This document shows positions 1,990-39,882 of a stretch of DNA of 39,882 nucleotides, piece after piece. A program made the translations under genes and the position numbers. The stretch's first letter is position 1, and every line of letters starts with the position of its first letter. The DNA is from a virus: positions 1 through 39,882 of IMG/VR virus record IMGVR_UViG_3300048919_000040; one strand, given 5' to 3'. The notes under the pieces were generated by a model, which was given only the letters and a program-made list of their open reading frames with translations, made no database searches and was not told the DNA's origin.

Positions 1990-2203
1990 AGCTTTGTTAT
2001 TTTATAGGTAAAAGGAAAAACGGCGATGATGTTAAAGAACTTTTGCGCTTGCCGTTTTTCCGGCGTTCATTTAATCAATTTTTGGCTACTGCCGCCCCTG
2101 CCTTATTACCGGTCTCACGGGTGGATGAATGAATGAACTATGCAAATGTAAAAACTATTTTTTAATTGTGCAAATAAATTTACAAAAATTTTTAATTATT
2201 TTT

Positions 2204-9396: not shown

Positions 9397-9637
9397 AAGA
9401 TAAAGATAAATTATATTGCGGGCGTCTGTAACTAAAACTAAATTTTTCTATAAATACGTAATTACCTGTATAAATAGGTAAAATAGGTATTTAATATTAC
9501 TTTTACATATTACTTAGTATTTTAGTTATTTAGTTACAAAGTGGTAAAAAATAGCCTATTCTATGAGGTTTGGCGCGTGTAACCAAATGCGCAACTAAAA
9601 CCACTTTGTAACTAAATTTTGGTTACGTGTAACTAAA
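9397..9637. promoter_or_regulatory. AT-rich intergenic region A with a TTT(G/A)GTTAC iteron array
   Basis: Motif copies at 9428, 9529, 9579, 9608, 9618 and 9629, in both orientations, plus a degenerate copy at 9591. There is a 14-bp inverted repeat at 9531-9544 / 9601-9614. A 41-nt block at 9499-9539 is 35/41 identical to 32114-32154. Confidence 0.6.
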
Positions 9638-13013: not shown

Positions 13014-16000
13014 ATCTTGCGGATTAGTTTTAGTTTACTTTTGTTTTTATTCTGCGGGTCGTAGCCCTCAATTTCTGCGGCGTAATATAGATCGTTATTA
13101 AATTTAACCATATATGACCCGTCTAGGTTGCTATATTGGTACGGCGTTAAATAGGCTTCTACTTCGGTATAGTGTGATTCGCTGCCAATTCCCAATAGCG
13201 TAAAATAGTTAGATAGTATACTATTCGGTTTGTTTTTGTAGTCTAATATGCTTTGGCCCTTGGTATTACTTACTTTGGCCATACTTAGCGATTTGTCACC
13301 CATTTTAAAAGTGCCGGGCAAAATCCCGTCCATATACCAAAAACGCGTAGGCAGATCGTTAAAACGCTTTAACATCGCTTCACTGTACGCGGTTGCTGAC
13401 GTCCAAACATCGTGCTTACTTATTACCGGAATTTGAAGGGCGATATTTCCGCCGGTCTGTACCTTGGTAATATTTTTAAACCAATTATAAGAAAATGAAC
13501 TCTTTTGTTCTACTACGTTATCTTCAATCGACCCGGTATTAAATTCGCCGCCACCGTCGTCGCCCGTCATAAAATAACCTTCTTCTTCGGTATTGATCGT
13601 AAAGCCGATTTTATATTTTGACGGAAGACCCAGCGGCGTATTAGTTCGCGACGCGATAGACGCGATACCGTCTAAGTCTACCGTTAAAGTGGTTACCGCC
13701 GCTTTGCTTTGCTTTACGTCTAAGCTAAACGCGCTTGTGCCTATTTGCGTCAGTTTAAGATTATACGCTTTTACAAAGTTGTCTATAAAATCGTTGGTCT
13801 TAATGTCTGCGGGCAAAAATCCCACTAGATTAATACTATCCACATCAAAATTTACGGGGTCATCCCAATTCATTACGGCGGTGCCGTGACCCTGATAGTC
13901 CACTTTTAGCCATTGGTCATCTATTCGGAACGGCTCAATATCCAAAGTAAATGCACATTCGTGATTAGTCCAGCCGCTAGTAGTGTGCATACCATCGCGA
14001 CGGTATAGACCTTCTTCGCTGCAATCCACAACGGTAAGAAGTTCGCCAGCATCTAGCCACACCACCGCGTTAAGTTGCCCGGTACCATTCCAATTACCTA
14101 CGCGCCCTACATAGTTATCGGGTGAATTGATAAAATCAATCTTATATTTATCTGTAATTTCCCAGCCTACTACGTTACTACTATTATCGTCTATGGTTCG
14201 ATCTATCACTAGCGTACCGTCTACGTCGAAAATGGCAGTCTTTAGGTAGATAGTTAGCAGCGGATTACCTACAAACGTCGAGCCTAGCGTATCGAATTGC
14301 GCTACGCCGTTAATAAATTGCACTTCCATACGCGGCGCATTTTCGCCGGCTTCGTGCAGATACGCCCAACCGGTATACCCCGTACCGCCATCTAGTCGAT
14401 ACGTGTAAAATTTTTGTAGCGGGAAACGATGAAGTATTACGTTTTGCGCGGTTACATCCGTGCCGGTAATACCTAACGTAGTTTGTTTTGCGCAAAGTCT
14501 TACATATACCGTACCCGGTGGGTATGTTATTGGTGAATTAGTATACATTACCGGCGGCCCTGACGTCGGGGCGTCGATACCTACACCAATATAAAATTTA
14601 TTTTCATCGTAGAAAACCAATACGGCGGCGTCGTCTTTTACGTCCACTATGGCGCTAAACTTTAAATTTGTAAAATTTCGCACGTCAATAAATTCGGATA
14701 TTTCCCAACCCGTCGCAAAATTTTGAAAGCCCGTAGTATTGCTAAGGTATACGCCCGTAGTTCGCAAATTAAGGTTATCCGGGTCGGGGTCTACCGGGTT
14801 ACCCTGAATATCCAATATCTTACCGCTTACGCGAGTACCGCCCGAATAGTCTATATTTAGGTCGGGGTTATCACCCTCATTGTCAAAAGTGCCAATGCGG
14901 CCATATTTCCAATAGCCCGGGCTTTCTACTCCTACTCTATTGGCTTCGCTTTCAGACGACGACCAACTAAGCCCGGGCTTTCCTACTTGCATTTGGCAAA
15001 TTTTAAATGCGGTATCGCGCGGATTATAAAACATATTATCTATCGGCGGTCTAAATTGCGGCGGTATTAAATTATTAACAACGTCGCGACCACCAAAACC
15101 AAAGCCTAATAAATGCTTTCTATTTTGTATCTGATCTATAAAATTAATTTGCCCGTTGCTAGGAATTTGAGGAAAATATTTTGGTATATTATTTTCGTCG
15201 AATGTCATATTTTGCGGTTGGTTGGTTTCATAAAATCCGCCATCTAGTTTAGCGCCTGATATTCCAAAGTCGCCGCTTTTTCGGTCACGAAGTAGTTTTA
15301 TTTCGTACACTCTGTACCCCATATGGTTTAAATGCTTATCGCCGTCGCCGCTTACGTGCTGTACGCCGGTTCGTGGGTCGGTATCTCGCCAGTTAGCATT
15401 TTGACCTATTGCTAATGTGGCTTCAAATTTAATTTTATAATATCCACTTGCTGGTATTCTTATTTGTGTTTGTGCCCAAGTTGTGCCGCTGGTATCGTTA
15501 ACTTCTTTATATAGCACATTGCCGCCCGGGTCATTGAAAACGGTTATTTGCGCATTGGTACAGTCGAATAGATTAGCGCTGTATATGTTATAGCCCCTAT
15601 CGCTGGTTTGGAATACGCCCGTCTCGAAATGATCGCCACCGCCGCGCTTATTGACACGGCTACCCCAAGACCCCAATACCATAATTTTAGCGTGATACCC
15701 ATAATTCCACGGTTGTATATAGTCTACCGAATTACGGTAACTCATATATAATTCAGTAAGTCGAGGGTCATTAAATGCCGTACCACCTAATTCATACCCT
15801 TGGCTATTGAAAATATGTTTTAACATCAATAGTGGATTAATAGACGGCGGTACGTCTTGCATATTTATACGCACGCTATTATCCCAAACATCGCGACCCG
15901 AATAATTATTATCGTTTTTATCTAGTGGAACCTTTGGCAATAGTCCGTATAGAACATACGGAAATATGGCCATTTGTGGCGCCGCTAATGCTGCGTTATT

Positions 16001-16414
16001 TATTGCAGTTATTGAACTAGCAAAGTCACTAAATGGTATTCTATACTCAGGCAATTGATTTAGCATTATGTCGCCAAAAATATCTTTTATTGATTTTACT
16101 ACCGGTATATATAAATTTCCTTTATATTCGTCGCCAATTTCGGAAAGTCTAAAATAGCCTACGAATATACGCACGGAATTTATTACAAGCTGCGCGCGAT
16201 AAATCTTATTAAACTTACCTTTTATTTCTTCCACATTGGCAAAACCAAAAGCGATATTATTGCGGCGCGTAAGTGGTATCGAAATGCTAAACGAATATTG
16301 CGCGTCTTTTGTATTTAGTTCCGCCGGGTTAATTAATTGCCGATTTAACCGGACGTTAAAATTATCGCCCGTATCGGTAATAGTTTCGTTTATAAATAGC
16401 TCTATGTTAATCAT
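13010..16414 (-). CDS. Large tail/baseplate or receptor-binding structural protein
   Basis: 1134-aa ORF with an ATGA overlap onto the downstream gene. It is beta-rich and Asn/Gly/Tyr/Trp-rich, typical of tail-tip proteins. No catalytic motif recognised. Confidence 0.5.
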   Translation of the reverse strand: MINIELFINETITDTGDNFNVRLNRQLINPAELNTKDAQYSFSISIPLTRRNNIAFGFANVEEIKGKFNKIYRAQLVINSVRIFVGYFRLSEIGDEYKGNLYIPVVKSIKDIFGDIMLNQLPEYRIPFSDFASSITAINNAALAAPQMAIFPYVLYGLLPKVPLDKNDNNYSGRDVWDNSVRINMQDVPPSINPLLMLKHIFNSQGYELGGTAFNDPRLTELYMSYRNSVDYIQPWNYGYHAKIMVLGSWGSRVNKRGGGDHFETGVFQTSDRGYNIYSANLFDCTNAQITVFNDPGGNVLYKEVNDTSGTTWAQTQIRIPASGYYKIKFEATLAIGQNANWRDTDPRTGVQHVSGDGDKHLNHMGYRVYEIKLLRDRKSGDFGISGAKLDGGFYETNQPQNMTFDENNIPKYFPQIPSNGQINFIDQIQNRKHLLGFGFGGRDVVNNLIPPQFRPPIDNMFYNPRDTAFKICQMQVGKPGLSWSSSESEANRVGVESPGYWKYGRIGTFDNEGDNPDLNIDYSGGTRVSGKILDIQGNPVDPDPDNLNLRTTGVYLSNTTGFQNFATGWEISEFIDVRNFTNLKFSAIVDVKDDAAVLVFYDENKFYIGVGIDAPTSGPPVMYTNSPITYPPGTVYVRLCAKQTTLGITGTDVTAQNVILHRFPLQKFYTYRLDGGTGYTGWAYLHEAGENAPRMEVQFINGVAQFDTLGSTFVGNPLLTIYLKTAIFDVDGTLVIDRTIDDNSSNVVGWEITDKYKIDFINSPDNYVGRVGNWNGTGQLNAVVWLDAGELLTVVDCSEEGLYRRDGMHTTSGWTNHECAFTLDIEPFRIDDQWLKVDYQGHGTAVMNWDDPVNFDVDSINLVGFLPADIKTNDFIDNFVKAYNLKLTQIGTSAFSLDVKQSKAAVTTLTVDLDGIASIASRTNTPLGLPSKYKIGFTINTEEEGYFMTGDDGGGEFNTGSIEDNVVEQKSSFSYNWFKNITKVQTGGNIALQIPVISKHDVWTSATAYSEAMLKRFNDLPTRFWYMDGILPGTFKMGDKSLSMAKVSNTKGQSILDYKNKPNSILSNYFTLLGIGSESHYTEVEAYLTPYQYSNLDGSYMVKFNNDLYYAAEIEGYDPQNKNKSKLKLIRKI

Positions 16415-18014
16415 TGGTATAGTTTTCGGATAATCTAAATTTAATTGTAGGTATGTGCATATTCTTTGTCTTCGGGTCTTTCTTTAATTCAAAATCTTCT
16501 ATAATAATGTATTCGCCGTTATTATTGAGTAGCACCCGGGCCGCTGCTAATTCCTTTAACCAATCCGCCACGCTATCACTAACGGGTGCGCCTACTATTG
16601 TAAACGGGTTCGCTAACGACGTGCTATATACCGTTTCTTGGCTATCTCCAATTTGATAGGCTGGTGTAATGGTTTTGTTAAATGTGGTGTTGCTTGGCTT
16701 AATTTCGTCGGTTATATCTGCGTCAAAATTAAAATTATCCCAACCGCCTAACCTGTTTAAGAATGTCATTTGCTGCAAGGTATGTAAGCAATCCGGTAAA
16801 ATATAATATTCCAAATCGTTAGATATAATAGATGACCCCCTAGCTAATGACACTTTAATAATTCCTGTTTTTGGATATGCGTCTAAAACCGTATCTATGT
16901 CAAGTACACAGGTATTAATTATGCTAAAATTTGCGCGCATTTGGTCGTGCGCGAATATTGTGCCTAAGTAATCGCCAGCCGTAGAGTATGCTCTATATGC
17001 CACTCGTATTGTGTAATCTATCGGGTTTGATAATCCGCGTTGTGTGTCCTTTAGAATAAAATTTATATATTCACGTTGGCCCCTTATATACGGTGTACGT
17101 GGTTTATTTGAAAGTAGTTTAACGGTACCTACGCCGTACACATATTCGGATAAATTAAGCGAATCGGATAATCGACCGTAACCATTAACCACATACAGTG
17201 CGTTAGATTGATAGAACGCAAACGAATTAATATTTTTAACTTTTGCGACAAATCTATATGCGCTTATTGAATTCGTGTTAAACCACCCGAAAGATGTAGG
17301 CGGTAATGTATACTCGGGATATTGGCCAAATAGCGCGTTGAGTTCAAACCAAAGCGGCGAACCTGAATACGTTTTACTAAGGGTCGTTAAGTAGTGGCCG
17401 ATTTTTGCCGGCGTAGTTGGTCTATCGTCTTCACCTAAAAATACTTGCGGGTCTACGTATACGTCTAACTCTATTTCGGCGGTATTTTGTTCGCCGCTTA
17501 TGCTATCATTATTAATTGATACCGGGTTAACGGTAGTTATAAGATATGCACTATTGCCGACATTATTAGGCGCGGTAACAATGATGTTAAACGCTGCGCC
17601 GGCTGCTTTAGACTTTATATTTATTGTTGACCCATTGGACGGCGTCGAGCCATTCCAAACGAAAGGCGTAACTATTTCAAAGTTTGATTTTATCCACGAA
17701 TCGGATAAAAGCGCTTGCCGTAAGTTTTCGGCCGTTTCGGAAACGTCAGACGAAATATAAAAAACGTTACCGCCAATTTCTGCGACATTAGTTGAGCCTT
17801 TAAATACGCGCGTTTCCCCGCCGGTAACGGCAATGTTTAGCGTCGATCTATTGGCCACATCCGGCGTAGTAGGCAGCATATTAATTTTTATATTTAATTC
17901 TAGCATTGTCTTTGTACTCGGCTTACTCGCAAACTGTACGAAGTTCTGAATAGCCGATAAACTTATTTCGTCCGGTTCCGTTATTACTGCTATATCTTTG
18001 CTTACATATCCCAT
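16407..18014 (-). CDS. Tail structural protein (putative)
   Basis: 535-aa ORF in the tail operon, overlapping the next gene by 8 nt. No motif recognised. Confidence 0.5.
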   Translation of the reverse strand: MGYVSKDIAVITEPDEISLSAIQNFVQFASKPSTKTMLELNIKINMLPTTPDVANRSTLNIAVTGGETRVFKGSTNVAEIGGNVFYISSDVSETAENLRQALLSDSWIKSNFEIVTPFVWNGSTPSNGSTINIKSKAAGAAFNIIVTAPNNVGNSAYLITTVNPVSINNDSISGEQNTAEIELDVYVDPQVFLGEDDRPTTPAKIGHYLTTLSKTYSGSPLWFELNALFGQYPEYTLPPTSFGWFNTNSISAYRFVAKVKNINSFAFYQSNALYVVNGYGRLSDSLNLSEYVYGVGTVKLLSNKPRTPYIRGQREYINFILKDTQRGLSNPIDYTIRVAYRAYSTAGDYLGTIFAHDQMRANFSIINTCVLDIDTVLDAYPKTGIIKVSLARGSSIISNDLEYYILPDCLHTLQQMTFLNRLGGWDNFNFDADITDEIKPSNTTFNKTITPAYQIGDSQETVYSTSLANPFTIVGAPVSDSVADWLKELAAARVLLNNNGEYIIIEDFELKKDPKTKNMHIPTIKFRLSENYTND

Positions 18015-18018
18015 ATTA

Positions 18019-18495
18019 TTAGTTATTAAAAAAGTTATCTAGTTCGCCGGTTATGGCGGCATATAAATTGTCTGACCAATCCGTATCAAATAAACTATTT
18101 ATTTGCGCGTCCATCGTGGCAAAGATCGGCCGGCCTTTGTGGCCATCCCGCCAAATGGCGTTAGCTATCGCGCCCAATGTTGCCGCGTCGGTAGGTATTC
18201 CGTTTTTATCGGCCCAATCTTTTAGCGCGCTAATTGGTGGCCGCTTACCGTACTTCGGCGGTCTATCCCACTCTAAGTAAACTACGTAGTGATTGAAGAA
18301 AGCCGTTATTACGGGGTCGTCACCGTTAGTCTGTGAAATGGCTGCGTAAAGATCGCCGCGTAGCGCACTATCTTTTAGCGTGTTTCGTCCTATCTTAGTA
18401 TTGACGCTAACGCTGTCATCTTCTAGCACTAGGTTAGCTAGCGCTAATAAATCGTCGGCAATCTTATCTATTGCCATTTGTACGCCCGGGGTCAT
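18019..18495 (-). CDS. Neck/tail-completion-like structural protein (putative)
   Basis: 158-aa ORF with an ATGA overlap to the upstream gene. Function is assigned by size and position only. Confidence 0.45.
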   Translation of the reverse strand: MTPGVQMAIDKIADDLLALANLVLEDDSVSVNTKIGRNTLKDSALRGDLYAAISQTNGDDPVITAFFNHYVVYLEWDRPPKYGKRPPISALKDWADKNGIPTDAATLGAIANAIWRDGHKGRPIFATMDAQINSLFDTDWSDNLYAAITGELDNFFNN

Positions 18496-19836: not shown

Positions 19837-21231
19837 ATGAACGAAGATATTAAAGAAGTTGCTACGCTCGTAGCAATGTCGAACGTCAAATTATCGCCAG
19901 CTTATCCCACGTTTAAAGTAAATAAATCCGGGGGGTGGGTAAGTTATGGCGATAGAAACGACTTCCCGCAGCACATAATAGATATTAATAGTAAGTCGCC
20001 GGCTAACAATTCTATTATACAATCGAAAGTAACGTATATTCTAGGTAAGGGTATACTAGATAGTAAGGCTACCGCGACTACATACATAGGCCGCCCTAAC
20101 GATTCCGATAGTTGGGATGAAATTACGGAGCGTGTAGCGCTGGATTATGTCACTTTTGCCGGTATGTATTGGCAAGTGATCGTAAACAAAGACGGTACTA
20201 CCGTTTCGATCTTCCACGAAGATTTTAGCAAAGTGCGCGTAGGTCAGATAAACGAACGCGGCGAACCTATTACTTTTAGAATATCTAATGATTGGAGCAA
20301 AACCAGCGGAAAAAATAAGCCGATAGAGTTAGACGTATGGCCCGGACTAAGTAGCGCAGAAGAAGGCGTAGCGTATTTATATCACTATTGGGATTATTCG
20401 CCGGGGCTAATGCTTTATAGTGTACCGAATTGGTGGAGCGCCGAGCAATACGTAAAGGCTGACGGCACGCTAGGCCAATTCTATAACAATTCAATAGATA
20501 ACGGCTTTACACCGTCGGTAGTTATCAGTATGCCAAATAACCCGGAGCAAGCAAAAAAAGACGCGTTTCAGAAAAAAATGGAGAGTGCATTTAGTGGCGC
20601 TAAGGGCGCTAGTTCTATCGTGGTGCTTTGGGGTGAAGGTAAAGAAGTTAAGCCCGAAATTACGCCGTTTAACGCTAGCGCAAACGCGGATATTTATAAC
20701 AACGTCGAAAGTATTATTTTTCAAAAGATTATTAGCGCGCACCGCCTTAGTAGCCCAACGCTGGCCGGTATCGCCGGTAGTGGCAACTTATCAGGTAACG
20801 CAAAAGAAATTATTAGTTCTTATATTCTGTTTAACTATACCGTTATTGAAAAAATGCGCCGAAAAGTGCTAGACCAATTAAATATTTTCACGAAAATAAA
20901 CGGCACCGCGCCGCTGCAAATAATGGAACTAGAAGTAATTGATAAGATCAAAGAAGCTACTACTAATTCGCTTACTATCGGCAACGCTGCGGAAGCCACC
21001 ACGGACGAAGGAAATACGCAAATTAGCGATAGTTTAGCGCAAAAGATCGGCGTAGGAGGTACGCAAGCGCTTACCGCGATTATTCAAAACCCGAATATAC
21101 CGGACGATCAAAAACGCGGGCTATTAAAAACGTTATTCGGCCTAGGCGACGACGAACTAGCTAACATTTTTAACGACCCGGTAGAATCCAAATTTAAAAG
21201 AATGCTAAAAAAATTAAGAATATGGAACTGA
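19837..21231 (+). CDS. Portal protein (putative)
   Basis: 464 aa. The central and C-terminal region (FQKIISAHRLSSPTLAGI...GNLSGNAKEIISSYILFNYTVIEKMRRKVLDQLN) follows the Phage_portal core pattern. Size and morphogenesis context agree. Confidence 0.6.
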   Translation: MNEDIKEVATLVAMSNVKLSPAYPTFKVNKSGGWVSYGDRNDFPQHIIDINSKSPANNSIIQSKVTYILGKGILDSKATATTYIGRPNDSDSWDEITERVALDYVTFAGMYWQVIVNKDGTTVSIFHEDFSKVRVGQINERGEPITFRISNDWSKTSGKNKPIELDVWPGLSSAEEGVAYLYHYWDYSPGLMLYSVPNWWSAEQYVKADGTLGQFYNNSIDNGFTPSVVISMPNNPEQAKKDAFQKKMESAFSGAKGASSIVVLWGEGKEVKPEITPFNASANADIYNNVESIIFQKIISAHRLSSPTLAGIAGSGNLSGNAKEIISSYILFNYTVIEKMRRKVLDQLNIFTKINGTAPLQIMELEVIDKIKEATTNSLTIGNAAEATTDEGNTQISDSLAQKIGVGGTQALTAIIQNPNIPDDQKRGLLKTLFGLGDDELANIFNDPVESKFKRMLKKLRIWN

Positions 21232-22281: not shown

Positions 22282-22312
22282 TTTGGATTATTAAAAAATA
22301 GTATTATCTTTG
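22282..22312 (+). promoter_or_regulatory. Bacteroidota-type housekeeping promoter (TTTG-N19-TATCTTTG)
   Basis: TTTG at 22282-22285 and TATCTTTG at 22305-22312 match the -33 TTTG / -7 TAnnTTTG consensus with a 19-nt spacer. Confidence 0.45.
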
Positions 22313-26729: not shown

Positions 26730-27914
26730 TTAATCGTGCGACGTGGTAATATCCCAGCCCGCCGCAATGTTAGACAATCTATTTAAAAATACGTATCTTT
26801 CGGCATCCTTAGCGTGGTTATGTTTGTCGATCGGCTTAGTTGTGTATTCGCCGGTCTTCTTATCCATTGCGTAGCGGTATAGCCTATTTTCTTTAATCGA
26901 ATCTAGCGAGCGCTTTGTATAGTGCTTTTTAAAACGGTTCATAACCGATATTCCTAGGTCTATATCTTTCGATAGGTTCGGGTCTGTGTCTTTATCCGCA
27001 ACCCATAGGCCGGCGTTTTGGAGTTCCTTAATACTTTTAGGTTCGGCAATATCGGCGATTACTTCAAAATCTTTTAGCCCTGCGTCTATAATGATCTGCG
27101 CTATTTCCGGGTTATCTAAGTTTTTGGTATATGCTAGCTGATCTATGTACACTTCGCCGTAACTCAATACCACGTGCATAATAGCCGTTGGCGCAGTCCA
27201 CCCAAAGTCTACCCCGATAAACGATTTTTTCCATTCGTCGCGCGGCGGCATCGCGTCCACTTCATCCCACTTTTTAATAATAAGCCCTTGCTTACTTCCG
27301 GTCTTACCTTCACCGTATACGCGCCACCATTCCGGGTCTTCTTCTTTGTTACTTTCAATTTCGGCGATCTGCGCAGCCGTTAACATATCGTTATCTAAAT
27401 ACGTGCTATGTATTACTTTCACATCGTCGCGCTTAGCTAGCTTAGTATCTACCCAAAATTCGTGCGCCGGGTTATAATCTAATATAATCTTTTCGGTAGT
27501 ACGTACGGCTAGCTGCCTGTATACTTCCCATTCGACGTTAATACACTCGTTAATATAAAGTACTTGACGCGCAGGGCCTAACACCTTTTCGGGGCTATCT
27601 GCGCTAAAAAATTCTAGTTTGGCGTTTTCGTACGTGTATATCTTATCGGTATCGTGCCACTTAGCCGGGTTATATGCGCCTTCTTCTTTTAGCATATTTT
27701 CAAAGTCACGTATAGCGCCACGCTTTAGGTGTGGCATTGTTTCCGATACTACCGATATAAGGCGCTGCTTTTTAGATTTGCGCGCCATGTAGTTTAAAAA
27801 CTGAATTACCGCCCAAGTCTTGCCCGAACGCGTACCCCCCTTTAGCGCAATGACCCGTATAGACGGGTCAATATATGCGGCTAAAAGTTCGCTAAATACT
27901 TTTGTAGTTTCCAT
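26730..27914 (-). CDS. terL: Terminase large subunit (PBSX/Terminase_3-like)
   Basis: 394 aa. Walker A is LKGGTRSGKTW, the nuclease region has VDFGWT...HAKDAERY, and the gene follows the small-subunit gene. Confidence 0.8.
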   Translation of the reverse strand: METTKVFSELLAAYIDPSIRVIALKGGTRSGKTWAVIQFLNYMARKSKKQRLISVVSETMPHLKRGAIRDFENMLKEEGAYNPAKWHDTDKIYTYENAKLEFFSADSPEKVLGPARQVLYINECINVEWEVYRQLAVRTTEKIILDYNPAHEFWVDTKLAKRDDVKVIHSTYLDNDMLTAAQIAEIESNKEEDPEWWRVYGEGKTGSKQGLIIKKWDEVDAMPPRDEWKKSFIGVDFGWTAPTAIMHVVLSYGEVYIDQLAYTKNLDNPEIAQIIIDAGLKDFEVIADIAEPKSIKELQNAGLWVADKDTDPNLSKDIDLGISVMNRFKKHYTKRSLDSIKENRLYRYAMDKKTGEYTTKPIDKHNHAKDAERYVFLNRLSNIAAGWDITTSHD

Positions 27915-27915
27915 T

Positions 27916-28437
27916 TTATAGTATGTCGTCTAAGTCGTTAAGGTTATCGGCCGTTTGTTGATCGCGCACCGTAACCACTAAACTACCTTCGTTTTTAACG
28001 TTGGCGTTAATGTTATCGGCTATGCCGTGTTTCTTAGCTACTAGCCCGCTATCGAATACGCGGACTATCGCGCCTTCTAAGTTCTGCGTATAACAAACTA
28101 ATTCGATTTGTTCTACCGTATCTAATAACTCTTCTTCTACCGAATTGGCGCGCTTGGCGTCTATCTTCGTTTTAATGTTTGCTTTAAACGATCGGAAGTA
28201 CGAACCGCTAACACCGAGGTAAATAGTAAAGCCATCCATAGAATAAGGGCGGCCTAACGATATTTCGTATTCAGTTGCCGCGCCTTGGTGCTTTACCAAT
28301 TCCGGGCGCATCCACGGGCTACGGTCGCATAAATCCGTGTAATCGTAAAAAGCTTGCATAAGTACGGCGGGGTCGCTAAATAGCTTATCCCGTCCGTGCT
28401 TAGTGCGTTGCTTCCAAAACTTGTTACCTCGTATCAT
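27916..28437 (-). CDS. terS: Terminase small subunit (gp3 DNA-packaging-like)
   Basis: 173 aa, immediately upstream of terL. SLGRPYSMDGFTIYLGVSGSYFRSFK resembles the GP3_package HTH region. Confidence 0.55.
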   Translation of the reverse strand: MIRGNKFWKQRTKHGRDKLFSDPAVLMQAFYDYTDLCDRSPWMRPELVKHQGAATEYEISLGRPYSMDGFTIYLGVSGSYFRSFKANIKTKIDAKRANSVEEELLDTVEQIELVCYTQNLEGAIVRVFDSGLVAKKHGIADNINANVKNEGSLVVTVRDQQTADNLNDLDDIL

Positions 28438-29506: not shown

Positions 29507-30217
29507 TTATTTAGTATCGTCATTTAGCGATAGCAAATAGTCTTTGCGCGCTTTGAACGTTATTTGCACATCTTTTTTAATTGCGCCGATTACCTGCCAT
29601 ATTTTAGTAAACGAAATACCAAGTAGCGCCGCTAAGCGCTTATACGAAGTATCGGGCAAAAGGCCCAAATATATTTCAAATATGCACGTATCGAAGTCGC
29701 AGTAATTGGCGCGCACATATTCCAGCACTTCCGTATTTAACGTATCTACGACTTCTTCGTACAGCGCGTAATTAAAATCGCTGGCCAAAAGGCGATCTTT
29801 AAGGGTGAAATTTACCGGAATACCGCTACGACTTGCGCGGCTATCTTTATAAAACTTATCTCTATCTAATTCAGCGTCAAGACTTTGCAACATTTTAGCG
29901 GTAGAAATATCGTTTATCTGCGCCTTCATGGCGTTAGTGTAATACGCGCGATAAAAGTAATCGGCATAGCTGGCGATACGCGTACCCTTTAATAATATGG
30001 CGTCGTAAATAACTAGCGCGGTATCGGTAGCCACGTCGTCGTTAAACGTCCAGCCCTTACTTTTAAATGTAGTTTTCAATTCGATGAAGTGCGCGCCATA
30101 CCATGACATGAAATTACGCGCCCGGCGTTCATTCTGAATAGTTGGCACTTCGTGGCCCGTAAGCTTCTTATATTTTTTGCCGGCATTCTTACCGCCGCTA
30201 TTTCCATATTTCGCCAT
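29507..30217 (-). CDS. Sigma-70-family-like transcription regulator (putative late-gene factor)
   Basis: 236 aa. The C-terminal LPDTSYKRLAALLGISFTKIWQVIGAIKKDV resembles a sigma region-4 HTH, and DVATDTALVIYDAILLKG is region-2-like. The position (after SNF2, before terminase) matches sigma/RinA-like regulators in related modules. Confidence 0.4.
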   Translation of the reverse strand: MAKYGNSGGKNAGKKYKKLTGHEVPTIQNERRARNFMSWYGAHFIELKTTFKSKGWTFNDDVATDTALVIYDAILLKGTRIASYADYFYRAYYTNAMKAQINDISTAKMLQSLDAELDRDKFYKDSRASRSGIPVNFTLKDRLLASDFNYALYEEVVDTLNTEVLEYVRANYCDFDTCIFEIYLGLLPDTSYKRLAALLGISFTKIWQVIGAIKKDVQITFKARKDYLLSLNDDTK

Positions 30218-31676
30218 AGTGTTTATTTTTAAGGTATTTTACTTCGTCCATTAGAAACTGCTGATCTGTGCCTTTTGATTCGGTGCGCTTCTTTACTCTA
30301 AAGTCTTCGGTATTCATCATAAGTAAAAGCCAAACATATATTTTATCGAATCCGCGACGTCGGCGTATTCGCGCAATAGTTTGTAGCCAATGTTCTAAAT
30401 TAAATGTAGGCGACCCCCAAACAATATGCTGACCGCCGTACTGAATGTTTAGCCCGTGGCCTGCACTAGCTGGGTGGATAACTAATTTTTTAATTTCGCC
30501 CCTATTCCATGCGTTAAATACTTCGCGCAACTTCTTACCTTTTGGCAAGCTTACGGCGTCCGGGAAACGTTTTAGTATTCTATCGCGTTCGTGTTGGAAC
30601 TGATATACGATTAAAAAATTATCGTCCGGGAAACGATCGAACAAATTAGCCATTGCGTCCAGCTTCACCGTATTTAATTCGTGCCAAACTTTAGCTTTGC
30701 CTTCTTCGCTATCTTCATAGATGGCGCCGGCCGATACTTGCAATAGTTTATTTATTAAATCGGCACTTGTTTTGATGGTGGTACTTTCGCCGTTAAAGAA
30801 GTCTATGCAATATTCGCGCTCTAGTTCGTCGTATACTTCGCGCTCTAGGTCTGTTAATTCTAATATAATGTCGCGATGTATAACGTCAGGTAATTTAATA
30901 TCTACATCCTTAGCGTTTAGACTTAGTACAATGTCGGATATTTTACGCGCAATAGTTTTACGCGCATTTGCTTTTAACTTGTATTCGTACACTATCATAC
31001 CATTGCCGCGCGTAGTAAAATACTTATCTGTGAACGGGCCAACCTGCGCACCCAATCGCTGGCCGCCGTCTAATAATTTAAGTTGCGCCCAAAGGTCTTT
31101 TTCACCATTAGGCGAAGGCGTACCCGTTAGCGCTATTCGATAAGGTACGTTAGACATTTCTAGCGCGCGGTCTAGCTTCTTAAAGCGGCCGCCACTCCAT
31201 GACTTAAACAAACTGCTTTCGTCCAACACGACGCAATCAAAAGGCAGCGAACCCGTCCACGGGTATTTAGTGGCCCCGGATTTGCTGCGCGGCTGATATA
31301 CGTACATATCAATAAGCCATTCCAAATTATCCACACTTATTAAATATAGATCGGCGTCAGCTTCTAAAGCTGCTTTTCGTTCTTTGGGGTCGCCATGTAT
31401 TACACTATATCTAAAATCGCTAACCTCCTGCCAGTCTTTTATTTCATTGGGCCAAGTAAGGCGCACAACGTTTGCCGTAGATATTACTAAGGTCTTACTT
31501 ATTGCCGCTTCGCGATATGTCATATCGTAAAGGTACAATAGTGTAACTATCGTTTTGCTCAAACTCATTTCGAGAAAAAGGCCGGCCCGGGGGTTGGCGT
31601 ATAAATGATCTAGGGCTAAATATTGGTGCGTATCTAATTCGCATTCTTCGCCCGTACTACTTTTCGTTATTATCAT
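30198..31676 (-). CDS. SNF2-family helicase/ATPase
   Basis: 492 aa with VVLDESSLFK (DExx), ALTGTPSPNG (motif III) and QTIARIRRRRG (motif VI). Confidence 0.8.
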   Translation of the reverse strand: MIITKSSTGEECELDTHQYLALDHLYANPRAGLFLEMSLSKTIVTLLYLYDMTYREAAISKTLVISTANVVRLTWPNEIKDWQEVSDFRYSVIHGDPKERKAALEADADLYLISVDNLEWLIDMYVYQPRSKSGATKYPWTGSLPFDCVVLDESSLFKSWSGGRFKKLDRALEMSNVPYRIALTGTPSPNGEKDLWAQLKLLDGGQRLGAQVGPFTDKYFTTRGNGMIVYEYKLKANARKTIARKISDIVLSLNAKDVDIKLPDVIHRDIILELTDLEREVYDELEREYCIDFFNGESTTIKTSADLINKLLQVSAGAIYEDSEEGKAKVWHELNTVKLDAMANLFDRFPDDNFLIVYQFQHERDRILKRFPDAVSLPKGKKLREVFNAWNRGEIKKLVIHPASAGHGLNIQYGGQHIVWGSPTFNLEHWLQTIARIRRRRGFDKIYVWLLLMMNTEDFRVKKRTESKGTDQQFLMDEVKYLKNKHYGEIWK

Positions 31677-31960
31677 AAGGCAATTATTAAAGCGTCTACG
31701 GCGTCGTAACTATCTATAACCTCAACCCTAAAGCCTAAGCGTCGTAGCTTATCATGTACTTTAAGCTGAATAGCCCGGGCTACTTCGCCGGGCTTTTTTA
31801 CCTCTACAAATATTATAATTGCGCCGGGGGCTAAGCAAATTCTATCCGGGAAACCGCGGAAGAATAAAGGCGGGAATTTAATACACATACCGCGCATAAT
31901 CTTTTCCCACTGCGCAACTAAATACTTTTCTACGTGTTTTTCTGTAACATCCTTATTCAT
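31673..31960 (-). CDS. VRR-NUC domain nuclease
   Basis: 95 aa. GFPDRICL...IIFVEVKKPG...QLKVHDKLRRLGF fits the VRR-NUC D...ExK pattern. ATGA overlap with the SNF2 gene. Confidence 0.75.
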   Translation of the reverse strand: MNKDVTEKHVEKYLVAQWEKIMRGMCIKFPPLFFRGFPDRICLAPGAIIIFVEVKKPGEVARAIQLKVHDKLRRLGFRVEVIDSYDAVDALIIAL

Positions 31961-32253
31961 AGTTATTTACGTTTAGTTACAAATTTGGTTACACCTGTAA
32001 GTTATTAAGCTACATAGTGTTACGGTGTTTTGCCGTATCGTGTAACTTTGTAACCAAATTTTTTGTATACATTATTATATATAATATAAATTGTTTAAAT
32101 TGAATATTTATATACTTTTACTAATTACTATATATTTTAGTTATTTGGTTACAATATTCATAGAACATAGATAGGCAAAGGATTTGCGGCGTAACCAAAT
32201 TTGTAACCAAAATATAAATGTAACCAAAATTTAGTTACACCTATGTAACCAAA
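31961..32253. promoter_or_regulatory. AT-rich intergenic region B with a dense TTT(G/A)GTTAC iteron array (candidate origin or regulatory hub)
   Basis: Forward copies at 31972, 31984, 32144 and 32230. Reverse copies (GTAACCAAA) at 32050, 32191, 32203, 32220 and 32245, plus core-only copies. They flank an extremely AT-rich core at about 32058-32140. Confidence 0.6.
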
Positions 32254-34649
32254 ATTCTACGGTACACCTTTTGCGAGCCGTACCAATTAACCCGGGTAGC
32301 TTTGCCCGAAGGCGTCCACCCACGTAGTGACTTCAATAGCCGGCCCAACTCGAAAGAATCTTTACGCGTAATATTGGTAGCGTCTTTACCTAGGCATTCC
32401 GTCCATATCTCTAGCATACAAACGCTATCGCGTTCTACGGTGCCTACGTTCTTTTCTTCTCCAAGCCATTGACGACGGGCGTACGGTTCCATGTTATCCC
32501 AATCTTCCGGCAATAGTCGTCTAAGGTATTCGCCTACTAAGCCTAGGCGTTCGTCTTTCTCTAGGTGTTCGTCTTGCACTAACTTAGCCATAACTTCCAG
32601 CTTACCAACTAAACGCAATTCTTCGCCCGCTTCATATCTTACTTTAGCTTCGGCCCATAACTGCGCTACTATTTCTTCGTCTAGGTAATCCCACGCATCT
32701 ACCAAGCCTTTACGACCCATAACGTTAATAACCCAAAAACGGCGGTTACCTGTTACGTCTCGCAAAAAGTCGCCTTCGTTAGTCGTAGCAAAGAATACGC
32801 AGCGGCGCGGAAATTCTTCCGTACGCTTGCCGTACGCTACCCTGAACTTATCAACTCGCTTACTGATAAATTGTTTTTGCGTATCTACCTGCGCGCGTCT
32901 CATACCTGCCATTTCGCCAAGTTCGATAATCCAACTACCTTGTATTACTTCTAGCGCGTCCTTACCTTCTACGTTGGTCAAACTATCGTTAAACCATTCG
33001 CCCCCCATTCTATCCAAAAGCGTAGACTTACCTGCGCCTTGGTCACCTGCAATAATAGTACATTGGTCAAACTTAATACCCGGGCGATAAATACGGGCCA
33101 CTGCGGCCGTGAAAGCTTTACGGGTTACCGCACGCGTATACGCGTTATCGGCTGCGCCTAAGACCGTTATAAATAATTCGTCCAGCCTTTCCACTCCATC
33201 CCATTCGAGCGCGTTAAGGTAATCCTTTACCGGGTGGTAACGGTGGTTACGCAGCACTACCGTAAGCCCGTCGGTTATCTGCCCTTTGCCTGTGATACCG
33301 TAAGCACGTTCTAAGTATAAACGTAATTGTGCGTCGTCGGCATCTTCTAACGCGCGCGGGTACTTGCGTGTTTCCTTATCCCACGGTAGCGGTAATACAG
33401 CCGTTTCCCTTTGGTCAAAATCATTATACCCAAACTTGCCAGCTAATGCGGGGTCATAGCTAAGAATAAGCACTACGTTTGCTATCGTGTTCTTAACGGC
33501 CCCGCTTTTCTCCGTTTCTAGGTTTTCTAGCCATTCGTCAAGGCCCGCCACTTCCCGGCTTTCGTCGGCTACTGCGTCGTAGTCCATCACGTTGCCGCTG
33601 CGTTCGGCTAGTATCTCACGCTTTACCGCCTTCATCTTACTAGCGAAGTCGGCCATAGCTTTGTAAGAAGGTAAGCGGGTTGGGTCTTTAACGTCGCGGC
33701 CGTCGTCTAGGTCGCCGAACTTATGCAGCCTAACGAGGTCGAACGCGTTACACGTCTTACCGCCGGCCGGGTCGGTGCTATGGTTAGAGTAGGCCAGCAC
33801 ATCACCGTACACCACCAAGCCGCCGGACGTCGAGCCATTGACGTAGGTATAGCGGTCGCTTCCCATGTCTAGCGCTTCGTCGTACACGTCGGGTAAAAAT
33901 TCGGCTATTGCTTCCGGGATGGTGAAGGCACGGCAAAACGCGCCAATGATACCCGCCTTAGTCGTTGGGTCTTCTACTGTGCCGTTGCTGGCGTGCTGTA
34001 CTGCTTCGGCCACGCGGGAACTAACCGGCCACGTCGTCGGGTCTTGCCAATCGTGGTAATCTGCTAGCACTTCGTCGGCCGACATCCACGGGCCATCTTC
34101 ATACGCGAAAAGATATTGCCCGTCTTTGCTGGTAGATGGGTAATACATAAGGCGGCTAGGTTGGTACGTGGTATCGTCGAACGCGTCAATACCTAGCCAG
34201 CTAGCAACCTTACGGGCGATCGCTTCGTATTCGTCCGGGTTTACCGGGCGATCTAGCGGGAAGATAAGACGTAGCCGCGGCTTACTTGGTTGGTGCTTAT
34301 GCGTCGAATACATAGCGCCAGCGTTGCCCCAAATTACGAAGTCTTCCCAAACCTCAACACCTGCGTAATCAATATCTAGGCAAACGATTTGGCGGAACTC
34401 TACCGTATCTTTCTTACGCTGGCCACCTATCAGGTACCCGCCGACAAAGCCGCCGACGTCCTTTATTTCGTCTTGCTTATCTTTGGTGTAACTGAAATAC
34501 TGCTTTAGCGTTTCCGGGGTGCGTTCCGTTTCTTCTAACTGCGCTAACAGGTCTTGCCACTCTATGCGCTTATTATGCCACTTCGTAGCCTTGCGCGACT
34601 TAGCCGTAGCTATGTCTATCGTATCGTTATATTTTAATCTAATTGCCAT
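32241..34649 (-). CDS. Primase-polymerase / VirE-type P-loop helicase fusion
   Basis: 802 aa. The N-terminus is VirE_N/prim-pol-like (VCLDIDYAG; PRLRLIFPLDRPV). The C-terminal half has Walker A GDQGAGKST and the VirE signature FFATTNEGDFLRDVTGNRRFW. Confidence 0.8.
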   Translation of the reverse strand: MAIRLKYNDTIDIATAKSRKATKWHNKRIEWQDLLAQLEETERTPETLKQYFSYTKDKQDEIKDVGGFVGGYLIGGQRKKDTVEFRQIVCLDIDYAGVEVWEDFVIWGNAGAMYSTHKHQPSKPRLRLIFPLDRPVNPDEYEAIARKVASWLGIDAFDDTTYQPSRLMYYPSTSKDGQYLFAYEDGPWMSADEVLADYHDWQDPTTWPVSSRVAEAVQHASNGTVEDPTTKAGIIGAFCRAFTIPEAIAEFLPDVYDEALDMGSDRYTYVNGSTSGGLVVYGDVLAYSNHSTDPAGGKTCNAFDLVRLHKFGDLDDGRDVKDPTRLPSYKAMADFASKMKAVKREILAERSGNVMDYDAVADESREVAGLDEWLENLETEKSGAVKNTIANVVLILSYDPALAGKFGYNDFDQRETAVLPLPWDKETRKYPRALEDADDAQLRLYLERAYGITGKGQITDGLTVVLRNHRYHPVKDYLNALEWDGVERLDELFITVLGAADNAYTRAVTRKAFTAAVARIYRPGIKFDQCTIIAGDQGAGKSTLLDRMGGEWFNDSLTNVEGKDALEVIQGSWIIELGEMAGMRRAQVDTQKQFISKRVDKFRVAYGKRTEEFPRRCVFFATTNEGDFLRDVTGNRRFWVINVMGRKGLVDAWDYLDEEIVAQLWAEAKVRYEAGEELRLVGKLEVMAKLVQDEHLEKDERLGLVGEYLRRLLPEDWDNMEPYARRQWLGEEKNVGTVERDSVCMLEIWTECLGKDATNITRKDSFELGRLLKSLRGWTPSGKATRVNWYGSQKVYRRILVT

Positions 34650-34834
34650 TCTTCGAGAAACGTTTTTAGGGTTTGATATTGGCGCATTTCTGCGCCTATT
34701 GTGCCGTCGTTATCCATAGATAAGATAGCCGGCTGTATGGTGACGTAAGCGCCAACCGTAAGCCATAAGAAGTAACTAACGCCACTAGTGTAATATGCGT
34801 TACTTTTACCTTTAAACGTCGCTTGTATATACAT
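34634..34834 (-). CDS. hypothetical protein (66 aa)
   Basis: ORF tiling between neighbours with overlaps. Confidence 0.5.
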   Translation of the reverse strand: MYIQATFKGKSNAYYTSGVSYFLWLTVGAYVTIQPAILSMDNDGTIGAEMRQYQTLKTFLEEWQLD

Positions 34835-35159
34835 TGTCTTTAGGGGTTAATATTAATAACTGTAATATGGTTCGGTTATTACCACCCGGCCCGGGTTGGT
34901 TGTGCTGTGTTTCTATTAGCTTTTCTACGGCTTTCGACATTTGCGCGCCTGCGTCTTCTATCTCATATTTATACCCGTAAGTTCCTTTTTCGTATCGGTG
35001 ATCTACCGCGACTTTTAACGGGCTTAACTTATATTCGCGGTGTCCGTAAATTATTGGCGCTTCAATCATAGGTGCGCATACTTCCGGCTCTAATTTATTA
35101 GCCCAACGGCGCAGCCACCATGCTAATTTATGTTTAATTCTCGTGTTCATCTGTACCAC
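34812..35159 (-). CDS. hypothetical protein (115 aa)
   Basis: ORF in the replication operon. No motif recognised. Confidence 0.55.
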   Translation of the reverse strand: MVQMNTRIKHKLAWWLRRWANKLEPEVCAPMIEAPIIYGHREYKLSPLKVAVDHRYEKGTYGYKYEIEDAGAQMSKAVEKLIETQHNQPGPGGNNRTILQLLILTPKDNVYTSDV

Positions 35160-35428: not shown

Positions 35429-37444
35429 CTAATCCTTTTTGTAAAAGTCTGATATATAGCCCTCTCCACCTAGTGGAAGATCAGGCGCCCAAATTGGCGA
35501 AATAGACATACATTCCTGCATATATCTTAAACAATCTTCGGCCGTTTCTTCCGGCTCTTCTGCTACTATTTCGTCATGCACATGGAAGATAATATCGATA
35601 TCGTTATCCATAGCGTACATACATTCTACTAAGCAATCGCGCGCAACCGCTTGCGTAATGTTTTCTACTAACTTACCGCCGTACGTATCTATTTGGCGCC
35701 ATATCTTCGGCTTCCCGGGTTCCTGCTGAATACCCCAATACGTAATACTTTCGCCATATCTTCCCGGCTTTAGCTGTACGCCGTGATACGCTAGGCGTCG
35801 GCCGCTAGGCAGTTCGATAAACACGTAGCCACGATCGTAGATAAACGTAAGGCTAGTATATTTTTTGCGCAGCTTCACCGTGCGACGTTCCCGGAAACAA
35901 GTTTTAAAAGCGTCTTCTACTTCGCGCCAAAACGTTACCGTGTTGGGGTTAGCTTTGCGCCAAATGGAAACAAGGCCGGGTAATTCTTCTTCGGTCAGTC
36001 CTTCACGTAAAGCGCCCATAGTTAACATAGCGCCCTTAGCCCCTTGGTAACCTAACGCCAATTCTGATACTTTACCCTTGGCACGTAGTGGGTGGCCCTT
36101 TACAATTTCTTCAATCGGAACGCCAAACATTTTGGCCGCCGTCGCTTCGTAAATTTTGCCGTGTGTTCTGAATACTTCTAGCTTCCAATCTTCGCCAGCT
36201 AACCAGCCTAATACCCGGGCTTCAATTGCCGCGTAGTCGCAGCTTACTATTTTGTTGCCCGGCCCTGCGATGAATATAGACCGTATTAGCTGGCTTATGA
36301 TGTCGGTAGGGTCGTCATATAGTATGCTTATCAAATGCTTACGCACGGCTTCCCGGGCTGTTACTATTTTGGCGTGCGCTTTTTCGGAAGTCTTGCCGCT
36401 TAGTTCTTTGGCTAGCATCTTCTTTAAGTTGTGTATCTGTATACCATTGGCAGCGAACCGGCCCGTACGTCCGGCCCCGTAAAACTTAATTTGCCCGTAT
36501 ACCTTGCCGTCATCGCAAAGATACTTTAACGCGGTACTATATTTACTTGCGCTAGTCCGGCTAGATAGCTGGCGCAACCTCAACAAATGGCGTACGGCTT
36601 CCGGGGTATCTTCGTCGTCTATCGCGTCTTGTAACGCTTCTTTGGCCATTGATTCCATTTCAAAGCCTTGCCCGGCTAACCACTCTTTTAACTGCGGTAA
36701 GCTGGTAGCATTCGATACGCCCGTATAGTCGCATATCTCTTGCCGTACTTCTTCCATAACTTCGGCCCAAACCGCTAGCGTTTCGTTAACTAGCTCTACG
36801 TCGATGTGAATACCGCGGCCGTTTATTCGTTGGTCTTGCTGCCAATAAATCCACTCTATGGCTGGCATCGGCACGTACTGACGAATGTATTTTAAAATAC
36901 CGTGTTCGGTCTTTACGTCCTGCGCGCCGTAGTTGCAAAATTGCTGCCATTTAACGGGGTCATGGTGTGGAAGGTTCCGCGTTCTACCGCCGTTAACTTT
37001 CGTAGCCTTGCAAGGCATCGCGAAGTATTTAATAAGTGCTTTACCTTTGGCGTCCTTTTGATCTTCCAGCTTTAACGCTTTGGCGATGTCACCAAGCGAA
37101 GACGGCAAACCAAGGTAAAGCGCTGCCACTTGCGTACAAAACCACTGCGCCGGGTCTAGGTCTAACTTATAATAGTTCGTCATACAAACTATTTCAAAAT
37201 TAGCGTTGTGCGCGATCTTTAATACGTTCGGGTCGGTCAGGGCTTCCCAAACCTCAACGGGTATACTTTCGCCCGGGTACGCATCGTTAGTACAATCTAT
37301 GTACGTGGGTTCGTCATCGTCGAACGCATACGCGAAGATCGTTATCTCAAACGATTCGTGCGTAGAGTATTTGTATACCCCTACCTTGGTTAGATCGAGT
37401 TCGCAAAACGTTTCTATATCGTTGTGAAGTTCCCGGCGTTTCAT
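35429..37444 (-). CDS. Family A DNA polymerase with a 3'-5' exonuclease domain
   Basis: 671 aa. Exo motifs are DIETF (DxE), HNANFE and YGAQD. Pol motif A is SCDYAAIEARVL, motif B is RAKGKVSELALGYQG, and motif C is FHVHDEIV. Confidence 0.9.
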   Translation of the reverse strand: MKRRELHNDIETFCELDLTKVGVYKYSTHESFEITIFAYAFDDDEPTYIDCTNDAYPGESIPVEVWEALTDPNVLKIAHNANFEIVCMTNYYKLDLDPAQWFCTQVAALYLGLPSSLGDIAKALKLEDQKDAKGKALIKYFAMPCKATKVNGGRTRNLPHHDPVKWQQFCNYGAQDVKTEHGILKYIRQYVPMPAIEWIYWQQDQRINGRGIHIDVELVNETLAVWAEVMEEVRQEICDYTGVSNATSLPQLKEWLAGQGFEMESMAKEALQDAIDDEDTPEAVRHLLRLRQLSSRTSASKYSTALKYLCDDGKVYGQIKFYGAGRTGRFAANGIQIHNLKKMLAKELSGKTSEKAHAKIVTAREAVRKHLISILYDDPTDIISQLIRSIFIAGPGNKIVSCDYAAIEARVLGWLAGEDWKLEVFRTHGKIYEATAAKMFGVPIEEIVKGHPLRAKGKVSELALGYQGAKGAMLTMGALREGLTEEELPGLVSIWRKANPNTVTFWREVEDAFKTCFRERRTVKLRKKYTSLTFIYDRGYVFIELPSGRRLAYHGVQLKPGRYGESITYWGIQQEPGKPKIWRQIDTYGGKLVENITQAVARDCLVECMYAMDNDIDIIFHVHDEIVAEEPEETAEDCLRYMQECMSISPIWAPDLPLGGEGYISDFYKKD

Positions 37445-39371: not shown

Positions 39372-39759
39372 TTGTCTTGCCGTTTGATCTTAATTGTACT
39401 ATTTGCCCTACCCATATACCTAGGTTAATGGCGTCTTGTTTGGTCGGTAGCGCGATGTCTAACATATACGTAAAGTCTTCGCCATTCATTGCGCTAGAAG
39501 TATACACTTTGCCCCCGTCGGTAGCCTTTGGCTGGCGATCTACACCACCAATAAAATATTTTAGTCCTAGCTTTTCTAGGTCTTCCGCTGCCTTATCTAT
39601 AATAGCGTGTATCATATCTGCGCGGCGGCTTTCGTCTATTTGCTGCGGGCTTGCTGCCAACGCTTCAATAGCTGGTTTTGTTTTACCTATGGCCTGTTTA
39701 CTTGGCCATACTTTTTTTGGTGTACCCTTGCGCGGGTCGTCCGGTTTTTTATCGTACAT
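39355..39759 (-). CDS. hypothetical protein (134 aa), tandem paralog 1
   Basis: In the circular map the ORF starts 2 nt after the exonuclease stop (TAAttATG). YFIGGVDRQPKATDGGKVYTSSAMNGEDFTYMLDIAL aligns with the 116-aa neighbour. Confidence 0.6.
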   Translation of the reverse strand: MYDKKPDDPRKGTPKKVWPSKQAIGKTKPAIEALAASPQQIDESRRADMIHAIIDKAAEDLEKLGLKYFIGGVDRQPKATDGGKVYTSSAMNGEDFTYMLDIALPTKQDAINLGIWVGQIVQLRSNGKTNEPQG

Positions 39760-39882
39760 AATTATAAAATGTCTTCGTCTTCTTCGCTGTAATCCTGTAC
39801 CTCATCATATCCCGATGAACCTACACTAATCGCGGGGCGGTCGTCGTCTTCGCTGGCTATTGCCGGTTTACCGTCGCTTTTA
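39756..39882. repeat. Terminal direct overlap, copy 2. It duplicates the 3' end of the exonuclease gene and the start codon region of the 134-aa gene.
   Basis: Identical to 1-127. Positions 39762-39882 repeat the C-terminal coding part of CDS 7..1263. Confidence 0.95.

Follow-up and report, generated by a model that had tools for sequence, protein, structure and literature searches.

A candidate Rep-helicase-type replication origin and its truncated distal copy in a phage genome of probable Bacteroidales host

The 280-nt gap at 31961-32240, between the ORFs 32241-34649(-) and 31673-31960(-) of a virus genome, carries short repeats on both sides of an A/T-rich stretch. The question raised by this locus is whether the repeats mark a replication origin, as the first-pass annotation had proposed, or serve some other purpose such as the control of the genes that follow. 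The window, that is the whole stretch of 39,882 nt which was analysed (IMG/VR record IMGVR_UViG_3300048919_000040), has identical ends, positions 1-127 being repeated at 39756-39882. This indicates that the assembly is complete and circular (or terminally redundant), with a length of 39,755 bp. Genes were called from Pfam and PHROG scans, and the features discussed here are collected in Table 1. Homologous proteins were found in records of Bacteroides fragilis, Alistipes and Rikenellaceae, and of the cultured relatives Bacteroides phage Bacuni_F1 has the most similar primase. On this basis a Bacteroidales host is inferred. The VRR-NUC gene lies directly downstream of the repeats and is their constant neighbour in the relatives, and the annotations of Bacuni_F1 and phiCT453A show this gene order too. 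VRR-NUC belongs to the recombination and replication toolkit. Two peculiarities were observed elsewhere in the gene map. The portal gene (19837-21231(+), PHROG 11226, E 4.6e-83) is on the strand opposite to terminase, protease and capsid and heads a block of small + strand ORFs, which is unusual for a head module. Two adjacent genes of 1126 and 1134 aa (9633-16414, -) are almost without family matches, the sole match being a weak one to tape-measure proteins in the 1126-aa gene (E 1.3e-6).

Table 1. Positions of genes, repeats and AT-rich cores in the window
Feature	Position	Strand	Remark
DNA polymerase A	35429-37444	-	
Primase-helicase/initiator gene, 802 aa	32241-34649	-	VapE-like SF3 helicase domain
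Predicted winged-helix domain, residues ~722-798	32256-32486	-	AlphaFold2 model
TTTRGTTAC in array A	31972, 31984, 32144, 32230	+	exact match
TTTRGTTAC in array A (GTAACCAAA on +)	32050, 32191, 32203, 32220, 32245	-	exact match
One-mismatch copies	32136 and 31914		32136 is TTTAGTTAT and abuts 32144
Primase-proximal iteron block	32191-32253		five exact copies: 32245(-), 32230(+), 32220(-), 32203(-), 32191(-)
Inner dimer, primase side of AT core	32136-32152	+	TTTAGTTAT (one mismatch) then TTTGGTTAC
AT-rich core, candidate DNA-unwinding element	32059-32143		85 nt, 8 G/C
Inner dimer, far side of AT core	32042-32058	-	exact copy 32050-32058 and half-site 32042-32046
GTAAC half-site	32042-32046		
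Outer dimer	31972-31992	+	copies 31972 and 31984, 12-nt spacing
VRR-NUC	31673-31960	-	Pfam VRR_NUC, E 2.3e-4, below gathering score
SNF2 helicase	30198-31676	-	
Small terminase	27916-28437	-	
Large terminase	26730-27914	-	
Array B	9397-9637		between 1126-aa gene (9633-13013, -) and head protease/scaffold gene (8227-9396, -)
Array B exact copies	9629(-), 9618(+), 9608(-), 9579(-), 9529(+), 9428(-)		
Array B one-mismatch copies	9591 and 9521		
Array B AT core	9437-9520		84 nt, 15 G/C
Head protease/scaffold	8227-9396	-	
Capsid	6906-8201		follows protease gene

The word TTTRGTTAC has 17 exact matches in the 39,882-nt window, against 1.61 expected as the mean of dinucleotide shuffles. In 100 such shuffles the maximum was 6 matches and none (0/100) reached 17. 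Fifteen of the 17 copies fall within two gaps which together make up 1.3% of the window, nine of them in 31972-32253 (array A) and six in 9428-9637 (array B); in the whole window the word is found outside both arrays only at 5772 and 12186. The repeat cluster reported near the primase-helicase gene is therefore real, the positions given for its copies were all correct when the sequence was checked again, and the expected confinement of the motif to two intergenic regions was borne out. The A/T stretch between the repeats was also confirmed, with the limits given in Table 1. One detail has to be corrected, as the copy at 32245-32253 does not span the primase stop codon (32241-32243) but occupies the final three sense codons, leaving 1 nt between it and the stop. 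Scans of the window against Rfam and for tRNAs were empty, leaving a structured-RNA reading of the gap without support. Cumulative GC skew had no extremum at array A or B and tracked the direction of transcription, and GC and AT skew together followed gene orientation with no origin signal. Megablast of positions 30000-35000 against the phage collection gave no match. The exact 18-mer from the inner dimer was found at 15 loci in viral contigs, in isolated copies only, and these were judged to be chance matches.

The copies of array A are arranged in a definite order. Starting from the primase gene there is a block of mixed orientation, in which the copies 32203(-) and 32191(-) form a dimer with 12-nt spacing, followed by 38 nt (between 32191-32211 and the inner dimer), a reversed dimer, the AT core and a forward copy with its half-site. 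After the half-site come 49 nt (between the 32042 side and 31992), the reversed 12-nt-spaced dimer 31992-31972 and the VRR-NUC start codon, about 11-14 nt from this outer dimer. The inner dimer at 32042-32058 is oriented opposite to that at 32136-32152, and an inverted pair across the core (I7, 32048-32059 and 32143-32154) is 100% complementary. In the same way the outer dimer 31972-31992 is paired with 32191-32211 in inverted orientation (I1, 24-nt arms, 92% complementary). As the inner as well as the outer dimers are inverted, array A possesses dyad symmetry about the AT core. It was also observed that the 3' end of the primase-helicase gene (32244-32258) is made of iterons, encoding the residues RILVT in the window. 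The gene end of the relative L009 is likewise iteron-built (6388-6421; VTNLVT within PVTNLVTDDI), so that the last residues of the protein are dictated by the repeat word.

The 802-aa protein encoded next to array A matches the Pfam family VapE-like_dom with an E value of 1e-76. A phmmer search against PDB sequences returned one match, 7PDS (E 2.7e-73, query residues 366-717), an entry named SaPI1 Rep1 with DNA. An AlphaFold2 model was built on 50 homologues and has a mean pLDDT of 84.9; its best Foldseek match is also 7PDS (E 2.4e-40, target-normalised TM 0.81, 32% identity), with 449 alignment columns on a target of 454 residues. African swine fever virus (ASFV) PrimPol, NrS-1, poxvirus D5/E5 and SaPI5 PriRep5 were weaker matches. 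Judged from the sequence and the model, the C-terminal ~450 residues of the protein are homologous to SaPI1 Rep. The N-terminal 350 aa have no Pfam match, and the primase label is therefore inherited from the annotation of homologues. The last 80 residues are predicted to form a helix, a strand, two helices and a two-strand hairpin (H722-730, E742-744, H745-752, H762-774, E778-787, E791-798 in the model), which is a winged-helix topology. Since the C-terminal winged helix of SaPI Rep proteins recognises short iterons (PMC9371898), residues ~722-798 are a candidate iteron reader. This C-terminal domain is the least conserved domain of the primase-helicase among the relatives, as expected of a specificity determinant. 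The window and L009 use the same word, TTTGGTTAC; their C-terminal domains are no closer to each other than to those paired with other words, and sliding identity of the window protein against the relatives did not bring the window closer to L009 in any domain. Covariation between domain and word is thus not demonstrated.

The position of array A is conserved far beyond the window. In all 21 of 21 distinct relatives, which include phages of Bacteroidota and Firmicutes, an array is present at the same place after the primase gene with words specific to the lineage. A repeat array and a GC-poor core directly follow the primase stop in every one of 24 viral contigs whose primases are ~45% identical to that of the window; the minimum 60-nt GC of the cores is 0.10-0.22 in these contigs and 0.08-0.22 when every relative is included. 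These contigs and Bacuni_F1 were reduced to 11 non-redundant relatives, or 12 elements when the window is counted. Among these elements there are seven words (TTTGGTTAC, AGTTACC, GGTTTAC, GTTTACA, GTTGACA, GGTTGC and CGTTTAC), and the layout is constant: a left block comes first, then a tandem dimer, the AT core and right copies. In the complete genome of Bacuni_F1, 11 of the 28 copies of CGTTTAC are in 17973-18250, which is the sole cluster. Closer to the window, L052 (88% primase identity) has every iteron of array A in place, including the outer dimer, with diverged spacers. The primase-proximal block has the same positions and orientations in L052 and L053, the contig of the latter being cut within array A. 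In L054 (67% primase identity) the word is TTTAGT(T/C)AC, and L063 (57%) has 14 copies of GTTACAA in a gap of 440 nt. Homologous primases are present in the Firmicutes phages Staphylococcus 2638A, Clostridium phiCT453A, Listeria LWP01 and Streptococcus Javan100, and the genes are followed by gaps of 243-362 nt with repeats of their own. An AT-rich stretch is evident in three of these four. LWP01 contains seven copies of TGTCAACA, with TGTCAA/TTGACA occurring nine times as the core.

Conservation is concentrated on the repeats themselves. When seven A and B elements representing four lineages were aligned for a footprint, the mean pairwise identity was 0.82 in iteron columns against 0.58 elsewhere (p 1e-9), and the columns of the dimer 32136-32152 were nearly invariant. 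Between array A of the window and that of L052, the values were 0.99 for iteron columns and 0.73 for other columns. The words ATTAGTAAA and CNATTTNANCNATTTATA recur in the AT cores of relatives, a conservation beyond base composition. Many relatives possess in addition a GC-rich element of alternating purines and pyrimidines, placed after the AT core and before the right-hand iterons. It is located about 180-260 nt after the primase stop in L002, L005, L013, L015, L020, L007, L003 and L001, at about 4170-4215 in L061, and also occurs in Listeria phage LWP01. Often it consists of two partial copies, such as ACGCGTACGCGTACGCGAGAC; the window, L009, L012 and Bacuni_F1 lack it.

The second cluster, array B, occupies a gap (9397-9632) among the structural genes. 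Its copy at 9629-9637 spans the stop codon (9633-9635) of the upstream gene. Arrays B and A align colinearly over ~230 nt, with iteron order, orientation and spacing alike, and array B is without the outer dimer which array A has beside its downstream gene. By this alignment array B appears as a truncated paralogue of array A. The two are 17.2/22.6 kb apart on the 39,755-bp circle. In L055 (89% protease identity), L056, L057 (72%) and L058 (60%) the protease gene is preceded by a homologous array. It was not found in L027 (55% protease identity), where the two genes abut, nor in L048 (50%), where the gap is 76 nt and has no repeats. L027 and L063 are one contig, whose array A is normal. The distribution in these genomes points to a lineage-specific duplicate, present in the closest clade only and absent from more distant relatives. 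In comparisons of array B with L055 and L057, iteron identity was 0.91-0.94 and that of other columns 0.71-0.77. Having kept its iterons, array B is probably still bound by the primase-helicase, the protein proposed to bind array A. The Logan contig SRR33317126_170929 (L053/L056; 16,373 nt) starts in the core of array B and ends in that of array A, which suggests that A and B of this phage have in common an identical stretch whose length sufficed to break the assembly, possibly by homogenisation through recombination between the copies. The array B core also holds a tandem word, TACCTATTTTACCTATTTATA, at 9455-9480 of the window. It is kept in the array B cores of four lineages (window, L055, L056 and L057) and is found in array A of L054 at about 12500-12525, and array A of the window carries a related word, TCAATTTAAACAATTTATA. 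The tandem word could be a site for a host factor, a priming site or a promoter element.

Array A is most likely the replication origin of the phage. The proposal of iterons flanking an unwinding element beside an initiator gene is supported by the homology of the protein with SaPI1 Rep, by the SaPI-like layout and by the array in 21 of 21 relatives. We give a probability of about 75% to the reading in which array A is an origin of the self-loading Rep-helicase type, as in the staphylococcal pathogenicity islands (SaPIs), with array B as a truncated paralogue likely to bind the same protein. By homology, the 802-aa primase-helicase would recognise the 9-bp iterons through its C-terminal winged helix, and two oligomers would assemble on the oppositely oriented iteron dimers which flank the 85-nt AT core. 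The core would then melt, the SF3 helicase would load itself and the fused primase domain would start synthesis.

An alternative, to which the first-pass annotation had already pointed, is transcriptional. The repeats would be operators or activator sites, or phage promoter elements, switching on two downstream operons, with a promoter in the AT core and a phage transcription factor bound to the 9-mers. Both arrays indeed lie directly upstream of operons on the transcribed strand (VRR-NUC/SNF2/terminase after array A, protease/capsid after array B), they are the two largest same-strand gaps in the window, array B precedes the highly expressed head genes, the AT cores contain conserved words and no terminator is predicted between the primase and VRR-NUC genes. 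The word also contains TTTG, matching the Bacteroidota -33 element. However, the pattern requires a -7 box as well (TAnnTTTG, with the -33 TTTG 17-23 nt upstream of it), and no TAnnTTTG is present on the - strand of 9380-9680 or 31900-32300. The layout is kept with words which lack TTTG (CGTTTAC, AGTTACC, GTTGACA, GGTTGC) and in Firmicutes phages, whose promoters differ, and across phyla only the Rep1-type gene upstream always accompanies it. The one cluster of Bacuni_F1 is not in front of its structural genes, and in L027 and L048 the same head genes are expressed in the absence of array B. A sigma gene had been placed downstream in the first-pass annotation; none was detected, the 236-aa ORF concerned having no sigma or HTH match in Pfam or PHROG, and no sigma or HTH protein was found among the scanned ORFs flanking array A and three small + strand ORFs. 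A scan of 31600-32600 for sigma-70 promoters and terminators stayed at background level. The complete -33/-7 pattern occurs four times in the window, and two of these matches, 2143-2174(-) and 22282-22312(+), lie in gaps toward downstream genes and are by their sequence likely host-type promoters, lending support to a Bacteroidota host. These two matches share the spacer word ATTAAAAAATAGT. Taken together, the transcriptional explanation of the arrays is weakened and appears unlikely. Array A may nevertheless contain a promoter, or the origin may be activated by transcription, and a transcriptional role could coexist with origin function.

If array A is the origin, array B may be a second one, or it may be a bound roadblock or partner site of the kind proposed for SPP1 oriR. 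A wider proposal holds that array B is a programmed partner of the origin, arisen by duplication in this clade of Bacteroidales gut phages, and that the nested dyad grammar of the iterons is a rule across phyla. Here array B would act as a second initiation site or as a protein-bound fork barrier, and as a barrier it would trigger the switch from circle-to-circle to concatemer replication. We put this proposal forward only tentatively and consider it rather doubtful as a whole. The opposite view, in which array A is the origin and array B a functionless relic of duplication or recombination, draws on the missing outer dimer beside the downstream gene, on the restriction of array B to one clade and on its less pure AT core. 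It seems quite improbable, since the array B iterons are kept while the spacers diverge, down to 60% protease identity, the spacing of the primase-proximal block matches that of array A, and in one relative the two arrays share an identical stretch which breaks the assembly at both. The arrays might instead be recognised by the small terminase for DNA packaging, or act as centromere repeats in the partition of a plasmid-like prophage. Such sites often consist of short repeats clustered in both orientations, and array A is 3.5 kb upstream of the small terminase gene, but this explanation is very hard to credit, as the array stays by the primase where the terminases differ (for example in Bacuni_F1 and the Firmicutes phages), the scanned proteins included neither ParA nor ParB, and an AT core between inverted dimers is the layout of an unwinding element and not typical of pac or parS.

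Primase-helicases of the VapE/Rep1 type are very common in gut Bacteroidales and Firmicutes phages; in one search 7,991 of the 8,000 scored candidates were homologues at E <= 1e-50. The literature searched contained no described origin for these phages, and no paper describing the origin of Bacuni_F1 or crr of phage P4 was found in it. If the rule holds, origins could be annotated from sequence alone, pairs of winged helix and iteron word would form a natural dataset for a protein-DNA recognition code, and origin fragments could be used as Bacteroides replicons or as decoys against phage replication. A rule true across phyla would make origins and initiator-DNA specificities readable from thousands of uncultured phage genomes. 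Array B would provide a second system, unrelated to SPP1, for asking whether a bound copy of the origin controls the change in replication mode.

Among known systems, satellite phage P4 offers a parallel for a single polypeptide with two sites. Its alpha protein is primase, helicase and initiator in one chain with a C-terminal DNA-binding domain, and ori and crr are separated clusters of iterons, both bound by alpha, as proposed here for arrays A and B. The crr site is only a few kb from ori and is required in an enhancer-like manner rather than being a full copy of the origin. Searches with the 802-aa protein, by sequence and by fold, did not return P4 alpha. The rule of position is shared by the SCCmec helicase Cch2, which binds direct repeats just downstream of its own gene, and this repeat site is also the preferred priming site (PMC7581432). 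The putative Cch2 origin has only three 5-nt iterons as against nine 9-mers in array A, no flanked AT core or second copy is described for it (PMC7581432), and the helicase and a polymerase-type primase are separate proteins, unlike the fused protein of the window.

Phage SPP1 resembles the window in having two origins of similar organisation, of which oriL is placed at the initiator gene and oriR in the late part of the genome (PMC6316719). Arrays A and B are likewise two similar regions with repeats and an AT-rich putative unwinding element, A at the initiator gene and B by the late genes, where it interrupts the structural genes. The SPP1 origins are about 13 kb apart on the circle, compared with 17.2/22.6 kb here. 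Binding of gp38 at oriR has been proposed to stall the fork and to bring about, with recombination proteins assisting, the switch to concatemer synthesis (PMC6316719), and recombination genes (VRR-NUC and SNF2) are present beside array A too. The resemblance is functional and architectural only. SPP1 uses gp38 as binder, gp39 as separate loader and gp40 as DnaB-type helicase, none of them related to the VapE/Rep1-type SF3 initiator of the window, and oriL lies inside gene 38 whereas array A follows its gene.

The closest likeness in layout is with the SaPIs, whose Rep proteins are self-loading SF3 helicases which act also as initiators (PMC9371898); the window protein has, in its predicted structure, an SF3/AAA+ helicase and a C-terminal winged helix. 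SaPI1 and SaPIbov1 origins and their Rep proteins were the subject of Ubeda et al. (2007, 2012), as these studies are summarised in PMC9371898 and PMC7581432. SaPI origins have 6-12 iterons immediately downstream of the rep ORF (PMC9371898), and array A, immediately downstream of its initiator-helicase gene with the first iteron in the last three codons, has nine exact 9-mers, one one-mismatch copy and a half-site. An AT-rich region is found near the centre of SaPI origins, with at least two iterons per side in opposite directions, and loading of two hexamers, one per side, is proposed (PMC9371898). In array A also, the AT core has at least two iterons per side, in opposite orientations. An origin of the SaPI type is expected to carry iterons specific to its own Rep, with the C-terminal domain as the seat of this specificity. 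SaPI1 Rep1 itself discriminated its origin poorly in vitro (PMC9371898). The systems differ in that the window is a tailed phage of Bacteroidota and the SaPIs are staphylococcal satellites, and in the iterons, which are 9-mers here and penta- or hexanucleotides there. Primase and Rep are fused in the 802-aa protein, whereas pri and rep are separate in SaPI1; SaPI5 has a fused primase-helicase as here, but its helicase is of a different family. The kind of origin to which array A most likely belongs is already known, and array A is further distinguished from the origins of the SaPIs by the nesting of its dimers with dyad symmetry and by the presence of a second, distal copy.
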